64,000 nucleotides of DNA from a virus. This document shows positions 7,627-64,000 of this stretch, in pieces; position 1 is the stretch's first letter, and every line of letters begins with the position of its first letter. The position numbers were made by a program, and so were the translations under genes. The stretch is from the UHGV virus genome UHGV-0125199; one strand, given 5' to 3'. The notes under the pieces were generated by a model, which saw only the letters and a program-made list of their open reading frames with translations, searched no databases and was not told the origin of the DNA.

Positions 7627-7738
7627 TTTATCACCTCATTTATAACAAAATTTTTAAATAAGATATTTATCTCCTTTTAATTCACTCATTTTCACTATAC
7701 AATCTGTAATTTTTACAATAGTAAAAAGACATTTATTC

Positions 7739-8167
7739 TCATTGGTCAGAATTAATTAAATTACATACAAGTTCGTTTAGTTCATTCTTTTTACTTTTTG
7801 GTATGTAACACACAAATTCTGTATACATATCTAAACCTTCCTTATATCTATTAATTTCATTTTCTTCTTTACAAAAATCAATATTATGTTCATTGCATAC
7901 CTTAACTAAAACGTCCCTTAAATGATACCCATCGCAACTATCCGATCCTGTTTTCTGAATATCAATATCTTTGCTTATAACATTATCAACTTCAATGTTC
8001 GTATAACAATTATTCCCTTTTCCGTCTAAATCAGTTATGCAAACCTTATTGTTAATTAGGTTATACCATATCTTTTCGAACGTTTCACTCTTGACTAGTC
8101 TATTTTCTTCATACCTTGAAAAACTATAATATCCTACGGCTCTTACCCTTAAATTAACCAAATTCAT
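7739..8167 (-). CDS. hypothetical protein
   Basis: ORF track. Confidence 0.45.
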   Translation of the reverse strand: MNLVNLRVRAVGYYSFSRYEENRLVKSETFEKIWYNLINNKVCITDLDGKGNNCYTNIEVDNVISKDIDIQKTGSDSCDGYHLRDVLVKVCNEHNIDFCKEENEINRYKEGLDMYTEFVCYIPKSKKNELNELVCNLINSDQ

Positions 8168-24024: not shown

Positions 24025-24270
24025 TTTATTTACCTCTTTTGATATTAATCACATCGGTATTTACAATCTTATATCACATGCAGCTCACAAACATTTTCAA
24101 ATAGCGACAAATGAAATAGTTTGTTGAATCAACGTTTACAGTTTCTAAATATTCGATTTACTGTAGGTGATATTTGATTATAAACACCGATGAAAATCAT
24201 ATGCAGAACTTTATGTATCTTATTTTATTGGAGGTATGAAACATGTATAGAAATTTATTCCGCATATGAA

Positions 24271-24342
24271 TTGTAGATAAAGGATTTGAACCTTTTCTTA
24301 TGCGCCACACTACATCGTGCTACCATTTACACTAATCTACAA
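24271..24342 (-). tRNA. tRNA-like element / probable pseudo-tRNA (intact acceptor, D and T arms, but the anticodon stem cannot be paired)
   Basis: Minus-strand reading 5' TTGTAGAT TA GTGT AAATGGTA GCAC ... AAAGG TTCAAAT CCTTT ATCTACAA has the canonical GGTTCAAATCC T-arm and a 7-8 bp acceptor. The middle segment GATGTAGTGTGGCGCATAAG does not fold. Confidence 0.3.
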
Positions 24343-24465: not shown

Positions 24466-24538
24466 TGGATCATTCGGGACTCGAACCCGAAACCGATCGG
24501 TTATGAGCCGATTGCGCTCACCATTGCGCCAATGATCC
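24466..24538 (-). tRNA. tRNA-Met (anticodon CAT; could also be tRNA-Ile2/initiator class, not distinguishable here)
   Basis: 73-nt cloverleaf folded by hand: acceptor GGATCAT/ATGATCC; D-stem GCGC/GCGC; anticodon stem ATCGG/CCGAT with loop CTCATAA; T-stem TCGGG/CCCGA with loop TTCGAGT. No CCA is encoded. Confidence 0.9.
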
Positions 24539-25762: not shown

Positions 25763-27167
25763 TTAAGCTATTTGCTTCTTATATTCTTTCTCTTTAGCCA
25801 TGTTCAAAATATTAATTGCAGCATTAATGTCTCTATCATGAATCGCTCCACATTCAGGACAAATCCAGCCTCTTATTTTTGTATCTTTTGTATTTACGTT
25901 CACAAAACCACATTTACTGCATGTTTGTGTTGATTTTTTATATTGTCCAATTGCAACAACCGGTACACCATATTCTTCACCTTTTCTTTTTAACAAAGTA
26001 AGAATTTCTCCCATCGCTGCATCAGATAAATTATCATTTCTCACTCTTGTTTTTCTTGACATACATATCTTTAACCGACAAAGTTTCTATTCCAATAAAG
26101 TCTGATCTTTTTATAACTTCTAACACCATATTCTCCATATGATATTTTCTTTGTCGTGTTACCTTTCTTTCTAATTTTGCTTTTTTAAATTTTGTTTCTA
26201 TGTATCTTTTAGAAGGCTTTAATTCAACATTTTCTTTTCTTAATTCACTTAATCTTTTCCTAAACTCAATATTGCTATACCCTTGTCTTCTGGATAATTG
26301 CCTATTTAACATCTCACGATGTTGACGAACACTTCCGTCTCTACCATTTTTGAATCTAGGATTATCATATTTTGTTCCGTCTGATAAAGTCATCAAAGTT
26401 GAAATTCCAACGTCAATTCCTATTTCTCTTTTCTCTTCTTCTACTTTCACAATCCTATAAATATCTTTCATACATAGCTGTAAAAAGTAATCGCCACAAT
26501 TATCTTTTTTTACAGTTGTTAATATTTGTTGTTTCTTATGTAAATTCACATATTCTTCAAAATTCATCATGCATGATGAATCAAACCAGACATTTTTTAG
26601 ATATCCTTTAATCCCCCTAATCTTTACCTTTCCGATTTTAGCTAAATTAAAATATGCTACATTTTTATTCTCCTCATTAAAGCTCATTTTTCTCAGAAAT
26701 TCTTGATATGTATAACTTGTTCTCGGATGTTTCTTTGAATAATATGGAGGTTTACTGTTCTCAATCGGTCTTTTAACTCCCTTTCCATTTGTTTTCTTAT
26801 TAGAATTTTCTCCACTCACTTGAGCATCCAATCGCTTCGACAAATCACACAAGAAAACTCCATTCTCACCAGACAAAGCACCCGCTGGAATCAATTTAAT
26901 GTCTTCTCTCCTACTTCTTAACACATCCAAATACTGTTTCTTTGCAATAGACTTTACATCCGGAAAATGAACAGTTTGTCCTGCATTCTTTTGGTCTGGT
27001 CTTTCAATTGTATTAACTTTATTTTCAAACATATCGTAAACAGCCATATTACACGCCTTATGTAAAGCCAAAATAATTCTATCTATTAATTCACTCTGCT
27101 CTTTATTCGGATACATTCTAAAATTGAAAGTATATACCGGTATTTTTATAACTTTTTCAACTAGCAT
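25763..27167 (-). pseudogene. tnpB: IS200/IS605-family TnpB (OrfB; RuvC-like nuclease with C-terminal zinc finger), split by a -1 frameshift in an A5 run at about 26051-26055
   Basis: N-terminal ORF has RuvC-I (IGIDVGISTLM) and RuvC-II (IGIETLSVKDM) blocks. The overlapping C-terminal ORF has LSDAAMGEI, CSKCGFV...[19 protein letters not shown]. Deleting one A of AAGAAAAACAAG restores a continuous TnpB. A structured GC-rich region 25650-25760 downstream resembles an omegaRNA/right end. Confidence 0.8.
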
Positions 27168-28846: not shown

Positions 28847-30328
28847 TTATCCTACAAGTTCATACTTGTTCCTTAAAAATTCACCAATATCATTTACCAT
28901 GTATGTATAATTTTCTTTTTGATCTTTAATATATGTAGAATTTCTGTTAAAGAAACTTCCCATCCACTCAGGAATTTCTAAATCTATGTTTGTTTCAAAG
29001 CTGTACGCAACAACAGCAAGTAAAGAATTCATGTTTTCAGGCTCAAGAAGCTTAGATGAACCGTCAATTTTTTTGTCCTTCCGTAGTTTTTTTACCCAAT
29101 CATTTAAAGAAATCTTGTAAATTTCAACATCTTCACCAATCACATCTTCTTTAACATTTTCTTTGATAAATTCAAGAGCGTTCTGGTCTGAAGAAGCATT
29201 ATCTATTACATTATTCTCTCCCACTTCGACAAGACTTTCTTCATCTTCTTTAATATGTAAATACTCTTTCATAAGAGCAGTTAAGATGTTAATTTTCTCT
29301 TTTAAAATAGCCTTACCTTTTGTATGACGATCCTCATTTAATTTGTCAAATGTTGCTCCATTTACATCTTTTTTATATAAAGACTTTTCAAATTCTTCTA
29401 CAAAATCCTTAAACTTAATATCATCTAATCCAAATTTAGCAAACTCTTTAAACACAGGGATCCAAACAATAACATTTTTTGGCACAAACACTTCTGTGAA
29501 ATTATCTTTGCACACAGATTCAATCCTGCTAAAATATTCATTTACAGTATCAAAGTGTTCTTCCGTTGCGTTCTCATTTAGATATTTGCTCATGTTCTTT
29601 ATTGCACTTTTCCAGTTATCAAAGAAAAACGTTGTCATGACAGATTCACATACAAGTCTTTCTCTAATACCTTTCGATTGCTGCTTACCGGAACAAGACA
29701 TACAATTTTTAAAGAATTTATTTTTCTCAGATATTGTCCTTATTTTTCTTGCATGTAAATCAATATAAGTAAATGCTTTCTGAGATGTATTCATTCCCAA
29801 ATGATTGTTGTATCTTCTCACCAATTTACTAATCTGTGACATCGTACAATGCTGATGTATTGTAATGTCAATCTGATAATCATCAAACATTTTTTTCAAT
29901 TCTGGCGGTAACATTTCATATGTTTTTCTTCTCAAATCATATTCAACAGATTCCCAAATAACTTTTCCGTATTCATCTTTACAGATTTTATTATTTTCAT
30001 CTTTCTTTTTTCTCTGATATTGGATAATTGGATCTTCTAAAGCAGCTGTAATTTTATAGTTTTCATGCTTAAATTTAATCAACGCAGAACTTCTTTGCAT
30101 TCCATCAACAATGTATTGCTGCACAACGTCTTCGTCCAAATCTTCTTCTCCTAAGATAATTGGGGGAATATAATCATCAGTTAATACAGTTTTGATTAAC
30201 TCATTCACCATTCCATTTTCCCAACAAAACAGTCTTTGAACGTCCTGATTATCACTAATATCTTCTTCCACAATCTTTTCTAAATAAGAATCTAGCGATA
30301 ATGTCTTTTTTCTAATTTTCTTTGCCAT
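28847..30328 (-). CDS. DUF262 (ParB-like nuclease superfamily, GmrSD N-terminal-type) domain protein
   Basis: DVQRLFCWENGM and IVDGMQRSSAL match the DUF262 QR-x-x-W and DGQQR motifs. No C-terminal DUF1524/HNH motif was seen. Confidence 0.5.
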   Translation of the reverse strand: MAKKIRKKTLSLDSYLEKIVEEDISDNQDVQRLFCWENGMVNELIKTVLTDDYIPPIILGEEDLDEDVVQQYIVDGMQRSSALIKFKHENYKITAALEDPIIQYQRKKKDENNKICKDEYGKVIWESVEYDLRRKTYEMLPPELKKMFDDYQIDITIHQHCTMSQISKLVRRYNNHLGMNTSQKAFTYIDLHARKIRTISEKNKFFKNCMSCSGKQQSKGIRERLVCESVMTTFFFDNWKSAIKNMSKYLNENATEEHFDTVNEYFSRIESVCKDNFTEVFVPKNVIVWIPVFKEFAKFGLDDIKFKDFVEEFEKSLYKKDVNGATFDKLNEDRHTKGKAILKEKINILTALMKEYLHIKEDEESLVEVGENNVIDNASSDQNALEFIKENVKEDVIGEDVEIYKISLNDWVKKLRKDKKIDGSSKLLEPENMNSLLAVVAYSFETNIDLEIPEWMGSFFNRNSTYIKDQKENYTYMVNDIGEFLRNKYELVG

Positions 30329-31709: not shown

Positions 31710-33215
31710 TCTAAAAAATTGCATCAGAAATAAGCGTTTAGAAACTTGTCCACACGATTGAACTTCTCATGGCTAAAGCCACGAGATTCTTGGGAACTCT
31801 TTTCTATTGAAAAGATATTTACCAAGCTAACTCGATAGTTCCTACCGTTATTATTTATTTCGTTACGCTACTTCTAATATCCTTAATCCTTCATTTAGAA
31901 TATTTATCGCAGCATTTATATCTCTATCGTGATGAGTATGGCAACAAGGACAATCCCATTCTCTAACATTAAGATTTTTAGTTTCTTTATTCACATATCC
32001 GCATACACTACAAATTTGAGAACTCGCAAAGAATTTATCTACTTTAATAACCTCTCTACCATACCAATTAGATTTATATTCTAGTTGTCTGACAAACTCA
32101 GACTATGATACGTCCACAATAGATTGAGCAAGTTTATGATTTTTAATAATATTTTTTACTTGTAAATCTTCAATACATATCACATCATTACCCCTAACAA
32201 TCTTAGTAGATAATTTCTGCAAGAAGTCTTTTCTCTGATTTGCGATATGTTCCTGAAGTCTTGCAACCTTAATTCTTGCTTTATTACGATTTGAACTACC
32301 TTTTGATTTTCGAGATAATTCTCTTTGTAATTTTGCAAGTTTATCTAAAGACTTCTTTAAATACTTTGGGTTTGGAATTATTTCTCCTTCAGATGTTATA
32401 CAAAATTCTTTTATTCCAAGATCAATACCAACTGCATTTTTTGTTTTAGGTAATGGTTGAATTTCAATATCAGTACAACAAAGCGACACAAAATATTTTC
32501 CACTTGGTTCTTGTGATATAGTGGCATTAAGTATTCTACCTTGTGGTATTAGCTTATTTTTCGTTTTTACCATTCCCAACTTTGGAAGTTTAATGTATTT
32601 ATTGCAATATTGAATATTACCGTTTACACATTTTGACTTATAGGAATATCTATGTGTTTTCTTTGATTTGAATTTTGGATAACCTGTGTGTTCTTTAAAG
32701 AACTTCTGATATGCTGAATCTAAATCCCTAAGAGAAGATTGAAGAGCAGTGGAATCAACTTCTTTAAGCCATTCGAGTTCCAATTTCAGTGTCTTCATAT
32801 CATTTGCACATTGTACATATGAAAATGTTTCTTTATTTTTCTCATACATTTCGATGCGTTTTGCAAGGTATTTATTATATACAAATCTACAAGAACCAAA
32901 AGTTTTAGTAATTATTTCTTTTTGCTTCTTATTTGGATATATTCGATATTTATAAGCTTTTTCCACCGATTTCACCTCGCTTCCGCTTTTGATTTTTAAT
33001 ATACTTTCTAATTTGTTCTTCTGTGTTTTACACACAATACAATATGATATTGAATTGAATATACATAACCCCTACCATGTGTTACTTCCATGATTTGTCC
33101 CCTCATATGTATATTCTCCATTTGGCGATTCATCTCATCACTAAAGTGACGAGTGTTCTCGCCTAATCTAATAAAAAGTAAATTTCAATATTCAGTTTTC
33201 CAATATTTGGAATTT
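31710..33215 (-). mobile_element. IS605-family (IS1341-like, tnpB-only) insertion sequence; approximate boundaries
   Basis: tnpB flanked by subterminal hairpins: ctcatggctaaagccacgag at about 31768, and ggcga...cactaaagtga...tcgcc at about 33128-33165. Confidence 0.4.
31863..33035 (-). pseudogene. tnpB: IS200/IS605-family TnpB, second and divergent copy, with an in-frame TAG at 32103-32105 replacing the conserved Trp codon
   Basis: N-terminal part has RuvC-I AVGIDLGIKEF and RuvC-II VICIEDLQVKN. The same frame continues after TAG as [37 protein letters not shown]...[19 protein letters not shown] (zinc finger, RuvC-III). Canonical TnpB has W at the stop position (DxxWxEF). Confidence 0.8.
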
Positions 33216-33424: not shown

Positions 33425-33763
33425 TCAATAGTTGCCAGAACGTTTGTTCGATTTTTTGTTCTTTTTCTGTTCTTCTGTATCCGGGAAAGGATCATGAACT
33501 AATATTGTACTCATAGTCCCGATAGGACGAATGTTTATTACGTCTTCTTGCTTTTCAGAAAAAACTCTTAATTGATTAAGAAAGTCATCACATATCTTTG
33601 CAATAGTTTCAGATCTTTCTATGATTTCCTTGCATTCCTGAAAAGTTTTTCTTTCAAATCCTATTACTTCATTTTCACTTTCTAAGTCCTGTTCCGCAAC
33701 TAAGACTTTTTTTCCTTTACAATATTTCACTGCTTCATCAATATCCATTAATACATATCTCAT
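33425..33763 (-). CDS. hypothetical acidic protein downstream of mazF-like gene (candidate antitoxin in reversed order)
   Basis: 4-nt overlap with the MazF stop; acidic composition. Confidence 0.4.
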   Translation of the reverse strand: MRYVLMDIDEAVKYCKGKKVLVAEQDLESENEVIGFERKTFQECKEIIERSETIAKICDDFLNQLRVFSEKQEDVINIRPIGTMSTILVHDPFPDTEEQKKNKKSNKRSGNY

Positions 33764-34125
33764 TTTAAATCATCTCCCCACATTGGATTTGCTTCATAAA
33801 CCCTTCTAATTTCTCGCTTGTCTTTTATATCTGTCAATTTGCCGAGGTATTTTATAATTCTTAACTCTGAAATTTGTTTTAAACATTCTGCCAAAACAAT
33901 AGAATCTTTTACCAAACCAGTTCCTCTACCTCTTTTTATCAGAGTATGCGTAGGCTGGTTTGGATTTTTTAATTTTGTACTTATTGGCATAACTAACGTA
34001 GTTGCTGCATGATGATTGCCAATATCATTCTGAATCACAACTGCTGGTCTTTTACCACCTTGCTCATGACCTATCGGATTATCTCCGAAGTCAACCATAA
34101 CAATATCAAACTGCTTTACATTCAT
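33760..34125 (-). CDS. mazF: MazF/PemK-family endoribonuclease toxin
   Basis: FDIVMVDFGDNPIGHEQGGKRPAVVIQND matches the PemK/MazF core. Own RBS AAAGGAGGA. Confidence 0.75.
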   Translation of the reverse strand: MNVKQFDIVMVDFGDNPIGHEQGGKRPAVVIQNDIGNHHAATTLVMPISTKLKNPNQPTHTLIKRGRGTGLVKDSIVLAECLKQISELRIIKYLGKLTDIKDKREIRRVYEANPMWGDDLK

Positions 34126-51467: not shown

Positions 51468-52595
51468 TTTTACTACCTCTCTTTCTTAATATCCAAAAAC
51501 TACCCAGTAACCAACCATGCTGACTGTTAATACAATCGGCATTAACAGAGTCGTGATCTCGTTAATTCTGTTTTTCAGATTTCTTTTCTTTCTTCTCATT
51601 TTGATTACCTCTCATTCTTATCTGATTGTTTATTCTCTCTTTTATTCTCAGCTACGCAAGCCATCTGCGGAAACATTAGAAGTAAAGTCGTTTCTACTAC
51701 TCACTGCCACGGGTCTTATGCTTTTGCCCGAAACGTATCTTTCTTTGCTTGTTTTCTATGCCTTGCATAGTCAAAATAAAATAAAAACAGATTCACAAGT
51801 GATTCACAGCCTCGTTATCTAAACCTTGCTTTTCAGATTCTAAAATCCTATCTGTGATTGACTCCGCTTTTCTGCTAGTTGTTTCTGTCGTGGTATCCTC
51901 TACACGTCTGAATTATTGTTATCCTGTATTCTTCAGCCTTTTTCAGCCTTACATAAAGCCACTTCGATTCTTTATGCGGATAGTTTTATTATACGGTGTC
52001 TACCTTTTCACCCGTCCGTTGTACTCATATTTCTGGCAACGTCAACGCTCATTCTTTTTTTATATCCTTTACGAGTCGGATATATTTTTTTGTTATTCCG
52101 TATTATTATTTAAAGGACTTGCCGACTTGACAAGTCCTGATTTACAAGTTACAATAATTTATGAGTTGTCGTGTATATATTCTTTTGCTTCTTGTTCCGT
52201 TGGACACTTTACAAGTTGCATATGGTCTGAATTGTACACGACTGTTTCATTGTCGTATGTTATATAGTACATACGTTTTCACCTCCCTTCTGTTGGAAGT
52301 GAAAGTTATACGTGCTTATTTCTTTTTAGTTCCACCGCATTGCACAATTTAAAAATGTGTTGTATAACATTTTTTAGCGGTTTTTATGTGTCTACTCTGT
52401 TTTTTTCGCCTATCATCTTATCTCATGTCCTTTACATCCAATTAACAAGCTAGATGCTATATGCTCAAGTTTATACAGATACGGCTTGTTATTGTAATGC
52501 TATCCCGAATTATCGTCAGCGATACTTAACTTTTCGATTTTTCAATGTACAAAATTTTTAAAAGGAATTTTTCACAAGAACTTGTGAAACACGAC

Positions 52596-52624
52596 TTGAA
52601 AAGCGAATACTAAAATGTTAGAAT
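52596..52624 (+). promoter_or_regulatory. near-consensus promoter TTGAAA-17-TAGAAT embedded in an inverted repeat
   Basis: -35 at 52596-52601, -10 at 52619-52624. Flanked by cttgaaaag / cttttcaag arms. Confidence 0.35.
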
Positions 52625-52631
52625 ATATATA

Positions 52632-52706
52632 ATCACTTTTCAAGAAGTGTTTGGAAAGAGCAGTCATTGTTTGGTTGGTAGCCTTGCGACTGCTCTTTTG
52701 TTTTCC
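52632..52706 (+). ncRNA. candidate ~75-nt sRNA (promoter to intrinsic terminator), convergent with the HTH gene
   Basis: Terminator stem aaagagcagtc...gactgctcttt (52655-52698) followed by a T-tract. Confidence 0.3.
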
Positions 52707-52765
52707 TTTTGTGATTATATAATATCATATGTTTTTATGTTTGTCAATCATTTTTGATTATTTTT

Positions 52766-52987
52766 TTAATCTTTTTCGATTATTATTTTTGCTTTATATC
52801 CTAATGGGTTTATAATCTCATTTGTTTCATCGAGTGATAAATTCTTTTTATTTATTTTACGATTCAAATTTTGATTTACAATTCCCATTTTTTCAGCAAG
52901 TACTATTTTTTTTATGCCCGACTCTTTTATAATGTTATTGATCGTACTTGATAATTCAGCGTTGTTATTTATGTCCACTCTGATCAC
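52766..52987 (-). CDS. small HTH DNA-binding protein (repressor-like)
   Basis: KKIVLAEKMGIVNQNLNRKIN is a helix-turn-helix. Confidence 0.5.
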   Translation of the reverse strand: MIRVDINNNAELSSTINNIIKESGIKKIVLAEKMGIVNQNLNRKINKKNLSLDETNEIINPLGYKAKIIIEKD

Positions 52988-53198
52988 CTCCTATTATAAT
53001 AAGGAAAGTATACCATAAAAACAGAAGTTAGTCTAACATTTCACTATTCACTTTTCAAGGTGCATTCCTTTTGTAATTGGGTATCGCTTAGCCAGAATTG
53101 ACTTTGCTTTTCAGATATGCTACACTTTAGTTGTTTAATTATTATGTATCGTGCAGTAAATCTGTACACCCTATAACAAAAACTTAGTAACCCGTGTA

Positions 53199-53248
53199 GA
53201 CTTATTGACTCTGCTTTACGGTGTGCATCATGGACTTATTGACTCTGC
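53199..53248. repeat. two direct copies of gacttattgactctgc, 34 bp apart, in the divergent regulatory region
   Basis: Copies at 53199-53214 and 53233-53248; each contains TTGACT. Confidence 0.5.
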
Positions 53249-53398
53249 CGTGATTGCGTTGCTTTGTTTTGATGTACTTATGGTATCATAGGTTCAACCT
53301 ATAGTCAATAGGTTTTACCTATTTTGCCACTTTTACTAAATAATGAGTGTTTTTTGTTTATTGTTGTTGTGTATTTTAAATAAGAAAGTGGTGATATT

Positions 53399-53590
53399 TT
53401 GGCATATAATGCAAAAGCAGATGAGAACTATAGAAAAAAATGTAAAACAATCGGGCTCAAATTTACTTTGAATGAATTAGCTTTTTATGAAAATATTGTT
53501 AAACATTGCGAAAGCAACAACTTATCTTTACAAGGATATATAAAAGACCTGGTGCGAAAAGATCTTAATAATGATAAGGGTATAAAATGA
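53399..53590 (+). CDS. small ribbon-helix-helix/MobC-like DNA-binding protein
   Basis: KTIGLKFTLNELAFYENIVKH...LQGYIKDLVRKDL resembles a MobC/RHH layout. Weak. Confidence 0.4.
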   Translation: MAYNAKADENYRKKCKTIGLKFTLNELAFYENIVKHCESNNLSLQGYIKDLVRKDLNNDKGIK

Positions 53591-53853
53591 AAAATAAACA
53601 CAAGAAAAATAATAATAACCCTATAGATATACCTGTACAATCTGGCATCCATGATATTTATAAAAGTGGGTTGAGTCGTAATATAGGGACTGCTGTACAC
53701 GTTGGATATTTACACTCGAATGACGACAGGCGGCACAAGTCACGTTGTATTTATTATGATAAATCAGATAAATTATGTCATTGCGGGAAAAGTGGCTGCT
53801 ATATGATGCGATGCTGTGGCAGCTCTCATTGCACAGGTTATCGAGAGTATTAG
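53587..53853 (+). CDS. Cys/His-rich small protein
   Basis: Overlapping start (ATGA); CHCGKSGCYMMRCCGSSHC. Confidence 0.35.
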   Translation: MKNKHKKNNNNPIDIPVQSGIHDIYKSGLSRNIGTAVHVGYLHSNDDRRHKSRCIYYDKSDKLCHCGKSGCYMMRCCGSSHCTGYREY

Positions 53854-55026
53854 CTGTATATAATAAGTAGTAATGCGTTTTATGAGTGCGTAACTATAGA
53901 TTACGTGTAGTGACATGTATTGTAGGTAATATGTGTGTATGGTAGTTTTTTGATAAGTAGATATGATTGTGTTTAGTGTGATATGATGTGATTTATTGCA
54001 TGATTTATGCATGGCTGCCAGGGCATATTTTAATAAATTAGGAATCATTACTGTTATTAGTGTGGTATTGTTTTTTTGTGATGTATATTTATGTATATTG
54101 TTGATAAGTTTACACGTAGTATTAAAAACTACGTGTAGTTATATGTAATACTATATCATATAGTCGTACGAGCTATATCATGTAATTTGAACATTGTTGT
54201 TGTTAGTAATAATTACTATTTTTTATTATTAAAATTTTTCACTAAAATTCCGAACTCTATAGAATCTCTTAGAAGTCCATAGATTTTACCGCTAAAATCC
54301 CGCCCGCAAAAGAGCTGTCGTTGCTACGCAAAAAAACGTCTTTTCAAAACTTATATTGTCCATAAAATCCCTATATACCGCCCCCTGTTTTCAGATCTTT
54401 ACAATCAAAACTTTTGCACTTTTCATCAATGTGTAAAAGTCCATAAAATAGCATAATAGTGTAGTATTACACCAGTCCATAATAGGGGCGGTATTAAACA
54501 TTTTTAGCGTCTGTTGTACATCAAATATAGCAGGTATGGGTTCTATCCACACCTCACTACCAAAATTTCGACCTCCGATTTCAACACCAAAATTTTCATC
54601 TTCCACTTCAAAAATCCCCAAAATTACCCAAAAATACTTCGGGAACTCTCTCGACCAACAAAGCATAAACACTGCGTTTCTACCATTCTAAACAGTCCAA
54701 AAATAACCAAAATCCACCACAATATCCATTCAAACCCCAAGCAAACTCTTACCGTTACTGCATTTTCCCGAACTCAACTTATATTCCAAAAAATTACATA
54801 TAAAACACACTATCAAAATCCATAAAACCACGCCACCTTATCCCTCAGTGTGCCCACATAAATACTGGCATCTCCCGGTATAAAAACATCACACAAAATT
54901 ACCTCTCTACCGAAGTACCATATTTTCAAATTTATTAACGCAAAAAAATAAGCAGCCAATTCCTAAGATAAGTCCTTAAGAACCAACTGCTATTATTTAT
55001 AATCACCCTATAATCATAAAATACCT

Positions 55027-55455
55027 TCAATAATATTTATTAAATATATCCCCATCTATATCACTAATATCATGAACCGGTACCTCAGTTCCATTTTCAA
55101 ATATTACAACATTTCTGTATTCGTGTACCTTCTTCACTCTCCCACTCATTGTAATATACTTTCCACCATCTTTCTTTAAATCTTTTTCAAAATATGTGAT
55201 TCTGACATCCGGATCAACATCACCGTCATCTAAACATTTTCTTAAAATACTCAATCTCTCATTCAGCCTATCCAAAACATCCTCATCAAATTCAATCCTT
55301 TTATCTGTTAATCTTGCAGTCTCTTTAATTTCTGCATCATAACCTGTCAATGCAGCAAATGGAGAAAATTGAGCAGCTCTATCTCGCATACTCATTTGAG
55401 GATATTTTTTAGAGACAAAATGTGGCAGATCAATAATATCATCGTATTTACCCAT
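55027..55455 (-). CDS. YolD-like protein (accessory partner of Y-family polymerase)
   Basis: 142 aa immediately downstream of the umuC-like gene, matching the SPbeta yolD-uvrX arrangement. Sequence fits the YolD family's general character. Confidence 0.55.
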   Translation of the reverse strand: MGKYDDIIDLPHFVSKKYPQMSMRDRAAQFSPFAALTGYDAEIKETARLTDKRIEFDEDVLDRLNERLSILRKCLDDGDVDPDVRITYFEKDLKKDGGKYITMSGRVKKVHEYRNVVIFENGTEVPVHDISDIDGDIFNKYY

Positions 55456-55464
55456 AACACACCC

Positions 55465-56988
55465 CTATGCTTTATGTCCACCAATTTGATTATTCCTATC
55501 TATTGCAGTAGCTCCTTCTTGTAGACTCATGCCTTTTAAAATTGCATTTTTCCCAAATTTTTTCTTGATATCCAAGACAGCTTTCTGAATATCTTTTTCT
55601 TTTTTAAGTTGTTCCTGGTCTACTGCATTTTCCTTTTCAGCAATCATATCAAATAAATTAAGCTGTTCATATCTATCCTTTTTCGCTTCCTTTTCGCTGA
55701 TCACATGATTTGCAGACATATTGATTCTTCTGACAAGTAAATTTTCGTCTACAATTCTACTGAATAAATCAAGCACAGCTCTTACAATCACGCTAGTAGA
55801 AGACGTATAACTATCTAAATTTACTGTTCCATGAGCATGTTTTGGAATCTTTCTCCCATATTGATCAAAAGAGAACTCACCTTTATACTTACTCATTCTG
55901 GAAGAATCTAATAGATTTTCTCTATCGTAGCCAATCGTTAATACAATCTGATCCGTTACAAGATTCTTACTAACCAAATCTAAGACCAGCATCTCAGTCA
56001 TTTCACGTACAATAATTTTCGTTTTATCAAAATCAGTTCCACAGTGTAAAACCTGTCCGCTTCCAATACTATTGCTCTCCGGCTTATATGCTTTTATATC
56101 TGAAATTGTAACCGGTTCATAACCCCATGCATGGTCAATCAAAAGCTCTGTATTTTTACCAAACATTCTACGCAGCAAGTCTTCATTATAATAATCTGAC
56201 TCTTTTCCAAGAGAACATCTTGCGATATCGCCCATTGTATATAGTCCTACAGATTCTAATTTTTTAATATACCCTCTACCTACTCGCCAAAAATCAGTCA
56301 ATGGTTTATGTTCCCATAGCTTCTCTCGATATGACTTTTCATCCAATTCTGCAATTCTCACACCATTTTCATCTGCAGGTATATGTTTGGCAACAATATC
56401 CATTGCTATTTTACAAAGATACAAATTAGTTCCTATTCCTGCGGTTGCAGTAATTCCAGTTGTATTCAAGACATCCAATATCATCTTCTGTGCAAGTTCT
56501 TTTGCGGATAATCCATACGTATTCAAATAAGAAGTCACATCCATAAATACTTCATCAATAGAATATACATGGATATCTTCAGGAGCAACATATTTCAAAT
56601 AGATATTATAAATCCTTGTGCTATATTTCATATAAAAAGCCATACGTGGTGGAGCCACAATATAATCAACTTTTAAATCCGGATTTGTATCAAGAATTTT
56701 TTTACTATATGACTGTCCGGGAAACTCATTCTTTTTCAATCGATATAATCTTGTTGCATTAATTTCTTGCACCCGCTGCACAACCTCAAATAATCTTGGT
56801 CTTCCAGATATACCATATGATTTCAAAGACGGCGTTACTGCAAGACAAATTGTTTTCTCTGTACGACTGTTGTCTGCAACAACTAAATTCGTATCCATTG
56901 GATCCAAGCCACGTTCTATACACTCTACTGATGCGTAAAAACTTTTTAGATCAATCGCAATATATGACTTATTATTCATGCAGCACAC
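55465..56988 (-). CDS. Y-family translesion DNA polymerase (UmuC/ImpB/UvrX-like)
   Basis: N-terminal IAIDLKSFYASVE is the Y-family palm catalytic motif. Another characteristic block is SIDEVFMDV. 507 aa. Confidence 0.85.
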   Translation of the reverse strand: MCCMNNKSYIAIDLKSFYASVECIERGLDPMDTNLVVADNSRTEKTICLAVTPSLKSYGISGRPRLFEVVQRVQEINATRLYRLKKNEFPGQSYSKKILDTNPDLKVDYIVAPPRMAFYMKYSTRIYNIYLKYVAPEDIHVYSIDEVFMDVTSYLNTYGLSAKELAQKMILDVLNTTGITATAGIGTNLYLCKIAMDIVAKHIPADENGVRIAELDEKSYREKLWEHKPLTDFWRVGRGYIKKLESVGLYTMGDIARCSLGKESDYYNEDLLRRMFGKNTELLIDHAWGYEPVTISDIKAYKPESNSIGSGQVLHCGTDFDKTKIIVREMTEMLVLDLVSKNLVTDQIVLTIGYDRENLLDSSRMSKYKGEFSFDQYGRKIPKHAHGTVNLDSYTSSTSVIVRAVLDLFSRIVDENLLVRRINMSANHVISEKEAKKDRYEQLNLFDMIAEKENAVDQEQLKKEKDIQKAVLDIKKKFGKNAILKGMSLQEGATAIDRNNQIGGHKA

Positions 56989-58360: not shown

Positions 58361-58490
58361 AAATCTCTCTAAACCCTTATAAACACTGGGTTTTTGTCGA
58401 AAAACATCCTTTAAAGTCTCCCTATATTATATATATATTAGGGAGAAATGAAAGGATGCGAAATCTCTCTAAACCCTTATAAACACTGGG
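58361..58490. repeat. two identical 30-bp direct repeats (aaatctctctaaacccttataaacactggg) exactly 100 bp apart, flanking an AT-rich hairpin (58418-58445); iteron/origin-like
   Basis: Copies at 58361-58390 and 58461-58490. Hairpin ctcccta-N14-tagggag between them. Confidence 0.6.
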
Positions 58491-62189: not shown

Positions 62190-62261
62190 GTTTAACTACA
62201 TAAGAATGAGGTGAGTAAAATTAGTAAATACGGAATTAAGATTAAAAATATAAAAGCAGGT

Positions 62262-64000
62262 ATGATTTATGATGTAAATATTGGAGTGAGAGACTATTTC
62301 ACTTACACTGAAGCGATGTTAAATAATAGTTTGTTTAGCTATCACCTTAAGAAAAATGGTATAAAAATTTATAAAAAACCAAAGTCTGATAAAGAATCTA
62401 CGCGTGATATAATATGTTTAGACTTTGATTTTGGAAGTCGTTCTTACGAAGAAGAGAAAAAAAGACTCGAAAAATTAGAAAACAATGCAACGACAATAGA
62501 TGATAAAAATAAAATAAAATATTTACTAAAAGAAATAGGGAAAAAAGAAAAACTATACAATGGTAAAAATAGAGATAAAATCAGAGAAGATTTTTATCAG
62601 AATGGAGTAGATATTTCATATAGACACACCGATAAAAAAACAAAAAAAGAAGTTGTTGAAACAATACATTATCTTATGCTATTTAGAACGAGTGCAAAAG
62701 CTAAAGTTGGACAAGTTATTTTTATAAATGAAAACTTATATGATGATGCATACGATTGGCTTACAATCGGATTAGGAAAAAAAATGTCTTATGATAACGC
62801 AAAAATAGTTGAGATGTCTGCTTATGCACCACTTACCACATCTACTATTGTTGGAACATTAAAAATTCCGGTAGAAGACATTTTAATATTAAAAGATCAG
62901 GATTCATTTTTTTCTACATTTACGAGTGTAGTAAAAGCTGAAGAGTATATTGATAGTTCTGGAAACAAAAAGAAAAAATGTATTGTTGAATCAGAAGAAA
63001 GAGAAGTTAAAAACACACTATGGGATGGTATGGGTATTATTGAATCATCAATTTTGCCGGGATGGATAAATGGGATGGCTTTATTACGAAATCATTTATT
63101 TAAGATGTGCGGTTTTAAAGGACATGTACAATTATTCTTTAAAGATTGGTGCAAAAAAAATAATCATGACTATAATACATATCAAGTTGAAGATATGTTT
63201 GGATGTAAACATTATTTAAAAGACATCAAGATTATCACAACAGATAATTCTATAAAGTGGAAAAAATTTATTGATATTATGGGCGGAACATTATCTTCTG
63301 CTTATGAATATTGGTGTGATAAAATTCGCGAAGATGGCAACATATGGGGAGTTGTAAAAACAGATCATCAAAGTAAATTTGAAAACTCGCAGCAGTTAAG
63401 TTATCAAATGATAAACACTCTTCCGTGCACTAAAGAAGACGTGTATGACATCGCATCAGATACAGTTAAATATATCGAAACATTGAAAACAGATAATGTT
63501 GAATTTGAAAAGTTTTTACGAAAATATGCAAATGAAATAAACCATTATCAAATGTTGGCTGATTTATACAGACATAATCCTGATTTCGCCAATTGTGGAT
63601 GGTTCAGAAATGAAAAGAAAAAAATTATTTTTGAATATGTTAACAGAATGAGAAAAGGCAAAATATTAGTAAATGGAGATAATTTGACTGTCTGTGGAAA
63701 TCCTTATGCTCTTCTACTCTATTCAGTAGGTGAAAATTGGGAAGAAGATCCTACATTTTCAAAAGAAGAAAATAGTATTCAATGTTATACAAGAAGATTT
63801 AGTAACGATGAATATCTATGCGGTTTTAGGAATCCACATAATTCACCGAATAATGTATGTCACTTTCATAATGTATATAGTCAGGAAATGTCTAGATATT
63901 TTGATTTTAGCAAAAATATTATGGCTGTAAATTGTATAGGAACTGATGTCCAAGATAGAATGAACGGGGAAGATTTCGATTCAGATTTTAATCTAGTCAC
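62262..64000 (+). CDS. large hypothetical protein, C-terminally truncated by the window end (over 579 aa in window)
   Basis: Open frame traced by hand from ATG 62262 (alternative GTG at 62211) to the window end. Not in the ORF track because no stop lies in the window. Contains LCGFRNPHNSPNN and NGEDFDSDFN motifs. Confidence 0.5.
   Translation, partial: MIYDVNIGVRDYFTYTEAMLNNSLFSYHLKKNGIKIYKKPKSDKESTRDIICLDFDFGSRSYEEEKKRLEKLENNATTIDDKNKIKYLLKEIGKKEKLYNGKNRDKIREDFYQNGVDISYRHTDKKTKKEVVETIHYLMLFRTSAKAKVGQVIFINENLYDDAYDWLTIGLGKKMSYDNAKIVEMSAYAPLTTSTIVGTLKIPVEDILILKDQDSFFSTFTSVVKAEEYIDSSGNKKKKCIVESEEREVKNTLWDGMGIIESSILPGWINGMALLRNHLFKMCGFKGHVQLFFKDWCKKNNHDYNTYQVEDMFGCKHYLKDIKIITTDNSIKWKKFIDIMGGTLSSAYEYWCDKIREDGNIWGVVKTDHQSKFENSQQLSYQMINTLPCTKEDVYDIASDTVKYIETLKTDNVEFEKFLRKYANEINHYQMLADLYRHNPDFANCGWFRNEKKKIIFEYVNRMRKGKILVNGDNLTVCGNPYALLLYSVGENWEEDPTFSKEENSIQCYTRRFSNDEYLCGFRNPHNSPNNVCHFHNVYSQEMSRYFDFSKNIMAVNCIGTDVQDRMNGEDFDSDFNLV

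Follow-up and report, generated by a model that had tools for sequence, protein, structure and literature searches.

The 64-kb stretch of DNA analysed here (the window) comes from a large temperate gut phage, about 160 kb in size, among whose genes is one for a YonO-like RNA polymerase. It includes 1173 nt (53854-55026) that are free of genes, between the stop codon of an 88-aa ORF on the plus strand and the stop codon of a 142-aa ORF on the minus strand. The question that this locus raises is what purpose such a gene-free stretch may serve when its plus strand is first rich in G and T and then rich in C and A. The reading favoured here, by analogy with related phages, is that the region is a cis-acting pac region for the initiation of headful packaging with a mirror-skewed build that has not been described before, for which the odds are put at about even (a probability of roughly 0.5).

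A gene-free region between convergent operons

The preliminary description of this DNA had found no credible ORFs in the region, and this holds: between 53860 and 54990 each of the six frames contains TAA, TAG and TGA. Three ORFs of 91-103 aa are found within the region, the translations of which are of low complexity and which are broken by indels of 1-2 nt in relatives. A recoded or spliced gene was rejected, given at least three stops of each type per frame over 53860-54990 and the frame-shifting indels among relatives. The genes, the terminator and the two arms that are referred to below are as follows.

53399-53853, plus strand: small operon on the left flank, encoding a 63-aa protein and an 88-aa Cys-rich protein.
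53854-54199, not stranded: left arm, G+T-rich and C-poor on the plus strand (7% C, GC skew about +0.5).
54553-54950, not stranded: right arm, C+A-rich and almost G-free on the plus strand (30% C, 6% G, skew -0.65).
54951-54991, minus strand: intrinsic terminator (18-pair stem, then a U-run) that ends the umuC-'yolD' operon.
55027-56988, minus strand: right-flank unit with a Y-family polymerase gene (umuC, 55465-56988) and the 142-aa 'YolD-like' ORF (55027-55455).

The small plus-strand operon and the umuC-'yolD' unit converge on the element. The former is a variable module, and in relatives HTH genes or a toxin-antitoxin pair are found at the same place. The 142-aa 'yolD' ORF gave no match in Pfam or PHROG; it is a conserved partner downstream of the Y-family polymerase gene, and its nearest relatives are found in MAGs of Lachnospiraceae and Oscillospiraceae. 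The element itself is not a general feature of umuC/yolD operons as it is absent from 50 Clostridia yolD loci. The umuC-'yolD' terminator is strand-specific, with -20.6 kcal/mol on the minus strand compared to -9.5 on the plus strand, and follows immediately after the 'yolD' gene, which makes it unlikely that the arms serve as 3' UTRs for the operons on either side; the gene on the left likewise has a terminator ahead of the arm in several of the relatives. The element was also considered, and rejected, as an attP site, since contigs of 300-535 kb, which are bound to contain host DNA, carry it without interruption, and since 14 kb separate it from the integrase-like gene.

Composition of the arms

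A sharp strand-compositional switch had been noted in the region and is real. The plus strand of 53860-54200 is G+T-rich as claimed (A99 C24 G73 T145; GC skew +0.51, T > A), the switch passes through the 10%-GC stretch at 54200-54249, and the plus strand of 54560-54950 is indeed C+A-rich and almost G-free (A154 C116 G25 T96; GC skew -0.65, A > T). When the G+T fraction was scanned over the 64 kb in 300-nt stretches (mean 0.494, sd 0.040), its maximum (0.66) fell at 53801 and its minimum (0.297) at 54551, and therefore both extremes of the 64 kb lie in this region. The arms are 350-400 nt long each, and either strand is G-rich and C-poor 5' of the centre and C-rich and G-poor 3' of it. Because this pattern is left unchanged by reverse complementing, the direction of the switch carries no information with respect to the polymerase gene.

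The arms could be without function, in which case the skew would be a mutational by-product in an unconstrained spacer, for example of cytosine deamination in a strand that is repeatedly single-stranded, be it in an R-loop or beside a DNA end. As in a C-to-T signature, the strand that is poor in C is rich in T both in the lineage of the window and in phage MT835469, and from one clade to another the arms diverge freely in sequence. However, G makes up 22-30% of the G-rich strand here and 35-40% in the Enterocloster phage PMBT24, against 15% at 4-fold sites, an excess so large that loss of C alone cannot give it. The arms of PMBT24 are moreover not enriched in T, and four distant lineages have retained the pattern together with its sharp central borders. 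A mutational origin of the skew is very improbable on these grounds. The neutral composition of transcribed DNA was also rejected as the source of the skew since 4-fold sites differ in both GC content and AT skew (21% GC with A > T, as opposed to 28-37% GC in the arms with T > A on the G-rich strand).

A different explanation is based on transcription. The G-poor, C-rich transcript had been likened to a Rho-utilisation (rut) tract, and the composition does fit: a C-rich, G-poor, unstructured stretch of at least about 80 nt, as rut would require, is present at 54560-54950 on the plus strand (C116, G25), but a promoter for the C-rich RNA was not found. What the arm has in common with rut tracts is a long C-rich, G-poor, unstructured sense sequence, whereas the mirrored arm and the centre are not accounted for by rut. 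In a broader version the element would be a transcription insulator between the convergent operons, with the arms acting as rut-like tracts for outward or read-through transcripts that Rho would stop before they become antisense to the small plus-strand operon or to umuC/'yolD'. The position of the element between convergent units agrees with this, as do the C/G ratio of 4.6 over 390 nt on the plus strand of the right arm, which is mirrored on the minus strand of the left arm, and the restriction of the 'yolD' terminator to the minus strand, so that plus-strand transcripts would need another stop. A rut site needs far less than about 400 nt, however, and the arms with about 400 nt each are several times longer than this need. 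No convincing promoter pointing outward from the centre was found (22 promoter-like sites against 17.9 expected, each with 9/12 positions), the equivalent elements of PMBT24 and of phage SPbeta do not lie between convergent genes, and the conserved central motifs as well as the mapped DNA end of PMBT24 are left unexplained. An insulator function is improbable on this evidence.

Central motifs, relatives and DnaA boxes

Between and within the arms a number of shorter features can be distinguished.

53902-53911, plus strand: first exact copy of TACGTGTAGT.
54039-54049, plus strand: TAGGAATCATT, an instance of the 11-mer TAGGAATSATT, found once in the 64-kb window.
54099-54107, minus strand: degenerate DnaA box TTATCAACA, aligned with a perfect TGTGGATAA of type-A relatives.
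54111-54139, plus strand: hairpin ACACGTAGT / ACTACGTGT of 10-11 pairs, overlapping the second TACGTGTAGT copy.
54200-54249, not stranded: AT-rich centre, 10% GC, 3.2 sd under the window mean.
54207-54221, not stranded: palindrome TAGTAATAATTACTA, inside the AT-rich centre.
54275-54485, plus strand: four same-strand GTCCATAAAAT-type repeats, starting at 54275, 54358, 54439 and 54475.
54378-54491, not stranded: inverted GC-box pair, CCGCCCC at 54378-54384 and GGGGCGG at 54485-54491, bracketing the palindrome at 54454-54469.
54454-54469, not stranded: conserved palindrome TAATAGTGTAGTATTA, CATAATA...TATTATG in relatives.
54540-54552, plus strand: GTTCTATCCACAC, conserved in both clades and holding the DnaA-box-like CTATCCACA with one mismatch.

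The element was retrieved from other genomes with two conserved blocks as anchors, one of them GTTCTATCCACAC, and is present in one copy per contig in 17 IMG/VR matches and 34 metagenome matches; altogether, more than 65 related human-gut phage contigs carry it. The composition switch is kept in 65/65 elements from related human-gut phage contigs, even where alignable sequence is lacking. One relative (L076, contig ERZ27293597 k109_7468) matches the window at 100% over 53300-55030, and clade 2 retains the skew switch at a core identity of about 67%. Among relatives the left arm is poorly conserved in sequence but conserved in composition, and for the right arm identity within clade 1 is 96-97%, while composition alone is kept in clade 2. 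The 96% identity of the right arm is uninformative with regard to constraint because the flanking genes are equally identical. A plasmid search gave no match to the region, a phage search with a wider query (53000-55500) gave one match, to part of the 'yolD' gene, and none to the region, and species-representative genomes searched with a DNA pattern from the core gave no matches.

AAGTCC-type repeats are present again in the distant clade 2, the 6-nt centre of the palindrome at 54454-54469 is inverted between clades, the CCGCCCC/GGGGCGG heptamers have no other copies in the window, and a conserved TTTTTATTATTAAAATTTTTCAC also lies within the AT-rich centre. A protein-binding array, which had been suggested for the region as a whole, is plausible for the centre, where the GTCCATAAAAT-type repeats, the palindrome and the inverted GC-box pair are located. 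Of the reiterated CCAAAAT units reported for the right-hand part there are four exact copies, all on the plus strand, in 54560-54713, and the 64 kb hold 28 exact copies on both strands. The C+A-rich composition by itself accounts for much of the clustering. In the right arm, A-tracts recur in phase every 10-11.5 nt, with a z score of about 10 for the 11.5-nt period. The repeated TACGTGTAGT motif is present as an exact copy at 53902 and at 54130 and nowhere else in the 64 kb. The hairpin is likewise real, although its start had been placed about 3 nt off; the arms are at 54112-54120 and 54128-54136, and the sequence 54111-54137 forms 10 Watson-Crick pairs with a folding energy of -13.2 kcal/mol (z -3.4).

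This hairpin bears on the idea that the region is transcribed into one or two long unstructured ncRNAs, being C+A-rich or the G+U-rich complements, which could serve for instance as a sponge for an RNA-binding protein. In the type-B relatives L042 and L061 the hairpin is kept via changes that give G.U pairs, so that the pairing is preserved only on the plus strand. The conservation of the right arm within clade 1 (96-97%) can be read in the same way, and the late operon of SPbeta is known to be preceded by an unannotated non-coding RNA (PMC5467207). Against this, a clear promoter was not found, and the arms keep their composition between clades but not their sequence. Rfam gave no match in the region, where hits were at chance level and tRNAs elsewhere were the only matches at gathering thresholds, and the consensus fold of the conserved core amounts to only -3.3 kcal/mol. 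A structured ncRNA was rejected on the last two points, and the long unstructured kind is most improbable.

The preliminary description had also named a replication origin, for which indirect support comes from the DnaA boxes of clade-1 relatives. The region would then be the origin of the phage, either alone or sharing the non-coding region with pac, and an initiator (together with host DnaA in most clade-1 relatives) would bind the central repeats and open the AT-rich stretch 54200-54249, upon which helicases would be loaded onto both outward-running strands, these being the C+A-rich, G-poor and structure-free ones. In most clade-1 relatives the switch point itself is occupied by 2-6 TTATNCACA boxes spread over about 230 bp, which are almost the sole TTATNCACA boxes of each 12-kb locus and form two triplets, the second followed by an AT-rich stretch; one triplet of DnaA boxes, 67 nt long, lies in type-A relatives exactly at the position equivalent to 54219/54220. 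The clusters of TTATNCACA boxes beside an AT-rich stretch and same-strand repeats make the type-A relatives reminiscent of oriC and of theta plasmids (P1 oriR, pSC101). In the window, 54200-54249 is as AT-rich as an unwinding element (10% GC), the centre contains same-strand repeats, there is one copy per genome, and the element falls into the zone at 53-58 kb in which the gene arrays change from one strand to the other and the cumulative GC skew is at its lowest for the 64 kb, with the minimum near 58 kb.

However, 53860-54990 contains no TTATNCACA box and only two boxes with one mismatch, which is the chance level. A DnaA-box cluster is also missing from the type-B relatives L074, L069, L042 and L061, nearly all of clade 2, PMBT24 and MT835469, which marks the boxes as a lineage-specific addition. 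Beside the element no initiator gene was found (no initiator family was recognised among the neighbouring proteins, most of which are unannotated), and the local skew is first positive and then negative, which is the reverse of the negative-to-positive change at a bidirectional origin. In lacking the cluster, in showing no recognisable initiator gene alongside and in its opposite polarity the window differs from DnaA-box origins, and in the SPbeta literature no replication origin is described. DnaA boxes are furthermore known from phage DNA that is not an origin. The injection-stop region (iss) in the left terminal repeat of phage T5 is a 1.7-kb non-coding sequence near the genome end with repeats, palindromes and inverted DnaA-box pairs 3 bp apart (10.1101/866236), and type-A relatives similarly carry TTATCCACA-GAA-TGTGGATAA. 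T5 differs from the phages discussed here in that its ends are fixed and carry long terminal repeats; a skew architecture has not been reported for this phage, and what its DnaA boxes do is itself only hypothetical. The DnaA-box clusters of most clade-1 relatives point to replication rather than packaging; as a reading of the region as a whole, an origin is unlikely, though to be kept in view.

Likeness to mapped packaging sites

Among the functions listed in the preliminary description a packaging site is the best supported, since PMBT24 has an element of the same build that is centred on a mapped pac site and the pac region of SPbeta shows a G-then-C switch. The pac site that PhageTerm called in Enterocloster phage PMBT24 (OQ326496.2) has been published (Sprotte et al. 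2024, PMC11035940), and the record has this site as its base 1; the search for read-start pile-ups, which had been named as a check for the present phage, is thereby an experiment already published for a relative (PMC11035940). Base 1 falls exactly between a G-rich and a C-rich arm, as the element consists of a G-rich, C-free arm (99,550-99,950), the record start, an AT-rich stretch (340-395) and a C-rich, G-free arm (395-800). PMBT24 resembles the phage analysed here in its large non-coding region, its YonO-like RNA polymerase, its GC content of about 32%, the mixed centre of its element, the unique TAGGAATCATT 11-mer and the palindrome CATAATA-TG-TATTATG, which is located 152 nt from the PMBT24 pac cut. 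A single TAGGAATSATT is found in the 64-kb window, in the part of PMBT24 that was examined and in that of MT835469, in each case within the element, and MT835469 represents a third lineage of YonO phages with a GT-rich then CA-rich switch.

The two phages also differ in several respects. The arms of PMBT24 are more extreme (skew up to +/-1.0) and are G+A-rich and C+T-rich instead of G+T-rich and C+A-rich, the GTCCATAAAAT repeats are lacking, and convergent operons do not flank the element. Overall similarity is low, with an RNA polymerase identity of about 25%, and the PMBT24 element is similar to the window in short motifs only (blastn E-values 0.003-0.07), so that its equivalence to a mapped pac element of a related phage refers to layout and such motifs. 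The PhageTerm call consists of a single reverse-strand peak beside an extremely skewed tract, and library bias at this tract is conceivable as its cause. The paper (PMC11035940) gives the position of pac, and the terms 'GC skew' and 'non-coding' are absent from its text.

In SPbeta the opening or pac site was mapped to the yonP-yonR intergenic region by restriction and read mapping (Fink & Zahler 1982; Kohm et al.; both as cited in 10.1101/2021.11.22.469490), and packaging is of the headful pac type according to the same preprint. Within the first 85 kb of SPbeta the GC skew peaks at 64,201-64,500, in this intergenic region, and negative skew follows. As in the element described here, the DNA is non-coding (about 950 bp, near the yonO polymerase gene), and the strongest G-rich, C-poor tract is followed by a C-richer one; the mapped site is placed in the intergenic region that holds the G-rich tract. 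The SPbeta switch is weaker and shorter (+0.57, then -0.4), lies between divergent instead of convergent genes and has no motif in common with the window. The record of phage BUCT082 starts within the SPbeta-type pac intergenic region, a choice of start that is not explained in the literature, and this phage was for that reason not counted as evidence.

Known pac sites such as that of SPP1 span a few hundred bp and are usually located in or beside the gene for the small terminase. The SPP1 site (pacL-pacC-pacR) has its cleavage centre between binding regions for the small terminase that contain intrinsically bent A-tract DNA, and this bent DNA resembles the phased A-tracts of the right arm. 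It differs from the element described here in overlapping the small-terminase gene with its few hundred bp, while the element is 1.2 kb long and gene-free and the 64-kb window holds no terminase gene. The SPP1 site has no G-then-C switch, and the switch was thus rejected as a general property of Firmicute pac sites. In the phage studied here the single copy per contig, with unique motifs that occur once in the 64-kb window, is consistent with pac.

If the region is a pac site, the terminase would recognise concatemeric DNA here and make its first cut, followed by headful packaging. The central ~350 nt (54200-54552) may form the recognition and cleavage module, comprising the motifs TAGGAATSATT and GTTCYATCCACAC along with the AT-rich stretch, the same-strand GTCCATAAAAT-type repeats, the palindrome and the GC boxes in inverted orientation, and judging from the spacing to the shared motifs the cut in this phage is predicted at roughly 54300-54430. 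As the arms are mirror-skewed about the centre, a central cut would leave a G-rich, nearly C-free 3'-ending strand on both new ends. The arms may act as bent DNA wrapped around the small terminase, could protect the ends from exonuclease in a Chi-like orientation, or might provide structure-free single strands for end annealing. A search for a Chi-like oligomer common to the G-rich strands returned only homologous islands such as ACTTCGG. A more speculative and distinctly unlikely extension of the pac reading is that a 'mirror-skew' packaging element of ancient origin, so far undescribed, is common to the YonO-polymerase phages from SPbeta to the large prophages of gut Clostridia. Its functional arms would then either act like oriented Chi sites and shield the ends from nucleases of the AddAB/RecBCD type or give hairpin-free complementary single strands for rapid circularisation, and in one clade host DnaA would have been recruited to pac as an architectural factor.

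To our knowledge, only a handful of phages have a known pac site, and these sites are usually short and located within terminase genes. Should the pac reading be correct, the strongest G-then-C switch in a gene-free stretch would locate the start of packaging in abundant and mostly uncultured gut phages as well as in SPbeta-like phages, which would help with genome orientation, with predicting which host DNA is transduced and with phage engineering. It would also raise the mechanistic question of why the 3' strand at a fresh cut must be free of cytosine, for which SPbeta or PMBT24 would be tractable systems. Finally, the presence or absence of DnaA boxes at the centre would amount to a natural experiment on the role of the host initiator in the handling of phage DNA.

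Composition and genome setting

The gene-free element at 53854-55026 contains TAA, TAG and TGA stops in all six frames, in agreement with the preliminary description, which had seen no credible ORF here but a switch from G+T-rich to C+A-rich sequence with short repeats. The switch is equally clear: the left arm (340 nt) has 7% C on the plus strand and a GC skew of +0.51, the nearly G-free right arm (400 nt) has 6% G and a skew of -0.65, and the two hold the highest and lowest G+T fractions among all 300-nt stretches of the 64 kb (+4 and -5 sd). Between them lies an AT-rich stretch (54200-54249, GC 10%), and the described hairpin, CCAAAAT cluster and pair of TACGTGTAGT copies are confirmed. The arms differ from the unconstrained sites of this genome: four-fold sites have a GC content of 21%, a skew of +0.40 and more A than T, whereas the arms have 28-37% GC, a stronger skew and more T than A on the G-rich strand. 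Mutation alone is unlikely to have produced the arms, since their enrichment in G goes well beyond the neutral level. The switch is invariant under reverse complementing; the only feature that truly defines it is therefore the G-rich, C-poor make-up of each strand on the 5' side of the centre.

The window has a GC content of about 31% and a phage-like gene content. The element sits between a minus-strand and a plus-strand gene array, flanked by two small inward-pointing units:

Roughly 53 kb of the window, minus strand: array including NAMPT, RNA ligase, polynucleotide kinase, sliding clamp, methyltransferase, two TnpB-like ORFs, an integrase-family gene, MazF and a GmrSD-like gene
53399-53853, plus strand: small ORF pair, left-flanking unit
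55027-56988, minus strand: Y-family polymerase gene and 142-aa ORF ('yolD'), right-flanking unit
From 58.5 kb on, plus strand: array with a UvrD-like helicase and a large polymerase-like ORF
62196-64000, running off the window end, plus strand: this large ORF, at least 601 aa in the window, YonO-type single-subunit RNA polymerase-like

The sole annotated relative of the large ORF is the 'RNA-dependent RNA polymerase' of Enterocloster phage PMBT24 (25% identity); an unannotated gut phage fragment is 45% identical, and a Pfam search gave no matches. Its sequence resembles a YonO-type single-subunit RNA polymerase.

Several other features of the window deserve description. Directly upstream of the G-rich arm, 53587-53853 (plus strand) encodes a small Cys-rich protein with a conserved C-terminal motif (RRHKxRCIYYdk..C......CxGSSxCxxYrE.Y) and no family match; clade 2, the diverged relatives, has two paralogues (L013, about 7700-8100), and elsewhere among the relatives a DUF4258 toxin and a zinc-finger antitoxin occupy this position. 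Ahead of the plus-strand array leading to the polymerase, a divergent intergenic region of 750 nt contains two identical 30-nt direct repeats, AAATCTCTCTAAACCCTTATAAACACTGGG (58361-58390 and 58461-58490, at a distance of 100 nt); they are promoter or operator candidates, and the cumulative GC skew of the window has its minimum in this region. Another ORF-poor stretch of about 1.2 kb (51500-52760), pyrimidine-rich on the plus strand, is conserved patchily in relatives (52086-52304 and 52557-52996 only). A tRNA-Met gene (24270-24342, minus) adjoins a tRNA-like gene (24466-24538, minus; Rfam 47 bits) for which ARAGORN gives an undetermined two-base anticodon. ORFs 26034-27167 and 32103-33035 (both minus) are hits to PHROG family phrog_506 ('transposase'), taken here to be TnpB-like, and the early array carries defence/addiction genes encoding a GmrSD-like N-terminal domain protein and a MazF/PemK toxin (28847-30328, 33760-34125).

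Conservation and the variable centre

Relatives were collected with the 142-aa protein (15 IMG/VR loci), with a core DNA pattern (17 IMG/VR and 34 human-gut metagenome matches, a single match per contig) and by exact-protein look-up, which gave eight additional places, one of them 100% identical to the window across 53300-55030. The switch is kept in 65/65 elements, with typical skews of +0.3 to +0.7 (left) and -0.5 to -0.75 (right), including those of clade 2, whose core identity is down to about 67% and whose arms can no longer be aligned. Within clade 1, which includes the window, the right arm is 96-97% identical, the same as neighbouring genes, and mosaicism affects the left arm and the centre (breakpoints 54219, 54364 and 54425). 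Some relatives carry the element intact on contigs of 300-535 kb, so the phage occurs integrated and the element is unbroken in the prophage. Membership of a repair operon was rejected, since nothing similar was found at any of 50 yolD-type loci of Clostridia genomes, and the element is therefore a phage feature. One clade-2 lineage (L015 1186-4200; also L019 and L062) has about 3 kb inserted between 'yolD' and the element, which is thus not strictly coupled to the repair operon.

The following blocks are conserved:

54039: TAGGAATSATT
Centre: TTTTTATTATTAAAATTTTTCAC
Centre: GTCCATAAAAT-type repeats, all on the same strand
Centre: inverted CCGCCCC/GGGGCGG pair
Centre: palindrome TAATAsTrTAsTATTA, its middle inverted between clades
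Centre: GTTCYATCCACAC

The consensus RNA fold of the core reaches only -3.3 kcal/mol, which is not convincing, and an Rfam search of the region gave no match; a long non-coding RNA, weakly hinted at by G.U-compatible changes in the hairpin, is very improbable.

Most clade-1 relatives have DnaA boxes at the switch point in up to two triplets (box, 21 nt, box, 12 nt, inverted box), the second adjoining the AT-rich stretch, and hardly any TTATNCACA box lies elsewhere in a clade-1 locus. In L001-L012 and many metagenome loci they are found ~800-1080 nt beyond the stop codon of 'yolD', which corresponds in the alignment to 54093-54220 of the window. The central cassette holds 0 to 6 TTATNCACA boxes across distinct elements, and the cluster comes and goes among phages otherwise 96% identical. 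It is absent from the window, whose type-B cassette has the hairpin and palindrome in its place, from four further independent relatives (L074, L069, L042, L061), from almost every clade-2 element, and from PMBT24 and the gut phage MT835469. Boxes at the switch point of relatives, an AT-rich centre and a position in the strand-switch zone would suit a replication origin, perhaps sharing the region with a pac site. This is nevertheless rather unlikely, as the boxes are restricted to some lineages, no initiator gene was recognised among the neighbouring proteins, most of them unannotated, and the skew polarity is wrong; moreover, the inverted boxes of the cassette are 3 bp apart, and box pairs so spaced also occur in the T5 injection-stop region, which is not an origin (10.1101/866236).

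Likeness to pac regions and proposed cleavage

In the PMBT24 record (OQ326496.2), positions 300-800 are nearly devoid of G (skew -0.9) and, on the other side of the record junction, 99,550-99,950 is G-rich and devoid of C (skew up to +1.0); the space between them holds an AT-rich stretch and the palindrome CATAATA-TG-TATTATG. PhageTerm gave a pac-type peak for this phage and the pac site was set as map start (PMC11035940), which places the mapped DNA end exactly between the two arms. In the 176-kb MT835469, which has a YonO-like polymerase, G+T-rich sequence at 171.5-172.65 kb forms one arm and C+A-rich sequence at 173.3-174.0 kb the other. Within the first 85 kb of Bacillus phage SPbeta, GC skew peaks at 64,201-64,500 and is negative at 64,800-65,000, in the yonP-yonR intergenic region, where one source, drawing on restriction and read mapping, places the genome opening/pac site (10.1101/2021.11.22.469490). 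All four lineages (window, PMBT24, MT835469, SPbeta) share this polarity, with either strand rich in G and poor in C on the 5' side of the centre, and the opposite sense occurs in none, whereas the classical pac site of SPP1 has no G-then-C switch. TAGGAATSATT occurs once in each of three examined gut-phage sequences (window, PMBT24, MT835469), always within the element, with about 0.2 copies expected per 64 kb from base composition. The composition architecture is mentioned neither in the PMBT24 paper (PMC11035940) nor in the SPbeta papers examined. Left of its G-rich arm, PMBT24 (L158) also has a non-coding stretch (98,190-99,450; its small annotated ORFs are not realistic-looking) with two exact copies of the palindromic ACTAAACACTGTTTAGT and a third, diverged one (ACTAAA...).

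A rut tract or transcription insulator would fit the composition and the strand-specific 'yolD' terminator; it is improbable, however, as no convincing promoter was found in the element and such a role accounts for neither the centre nor the PMBT24 DNA end. Among the functions that the preliminary description had proposed, packaging has come out ahead through the PMBT24 end mapped between like arms, and origin and rut tract are left as rivals only. The comparison makes a pac role the most probable one for the region in this phage, with a probability of roughly one half.

Recognition and cleavage by the packaging machinery would take place in the centre of the element, with a cut predicted at about 54300-54430 from the spacing that the shared motifs have in PMBT24. 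From the geometry, a central cut would give both new ends a 3'-terminal strand rich in G and almost lacking C. Chi sites need one orientation to act on AddAB/RecBCD as it enters the DNA, and the G-rich 3'-ending strands would have that orientation; a search for an oligomer common to the G-rich strands was uninformative. Resection of the cut ends would yield hairpin-free single strands. If the assignment as pac is true, the element would represent a known kind of element in an undescribed, readily recognised form common to phages with YonO-type polymerases.
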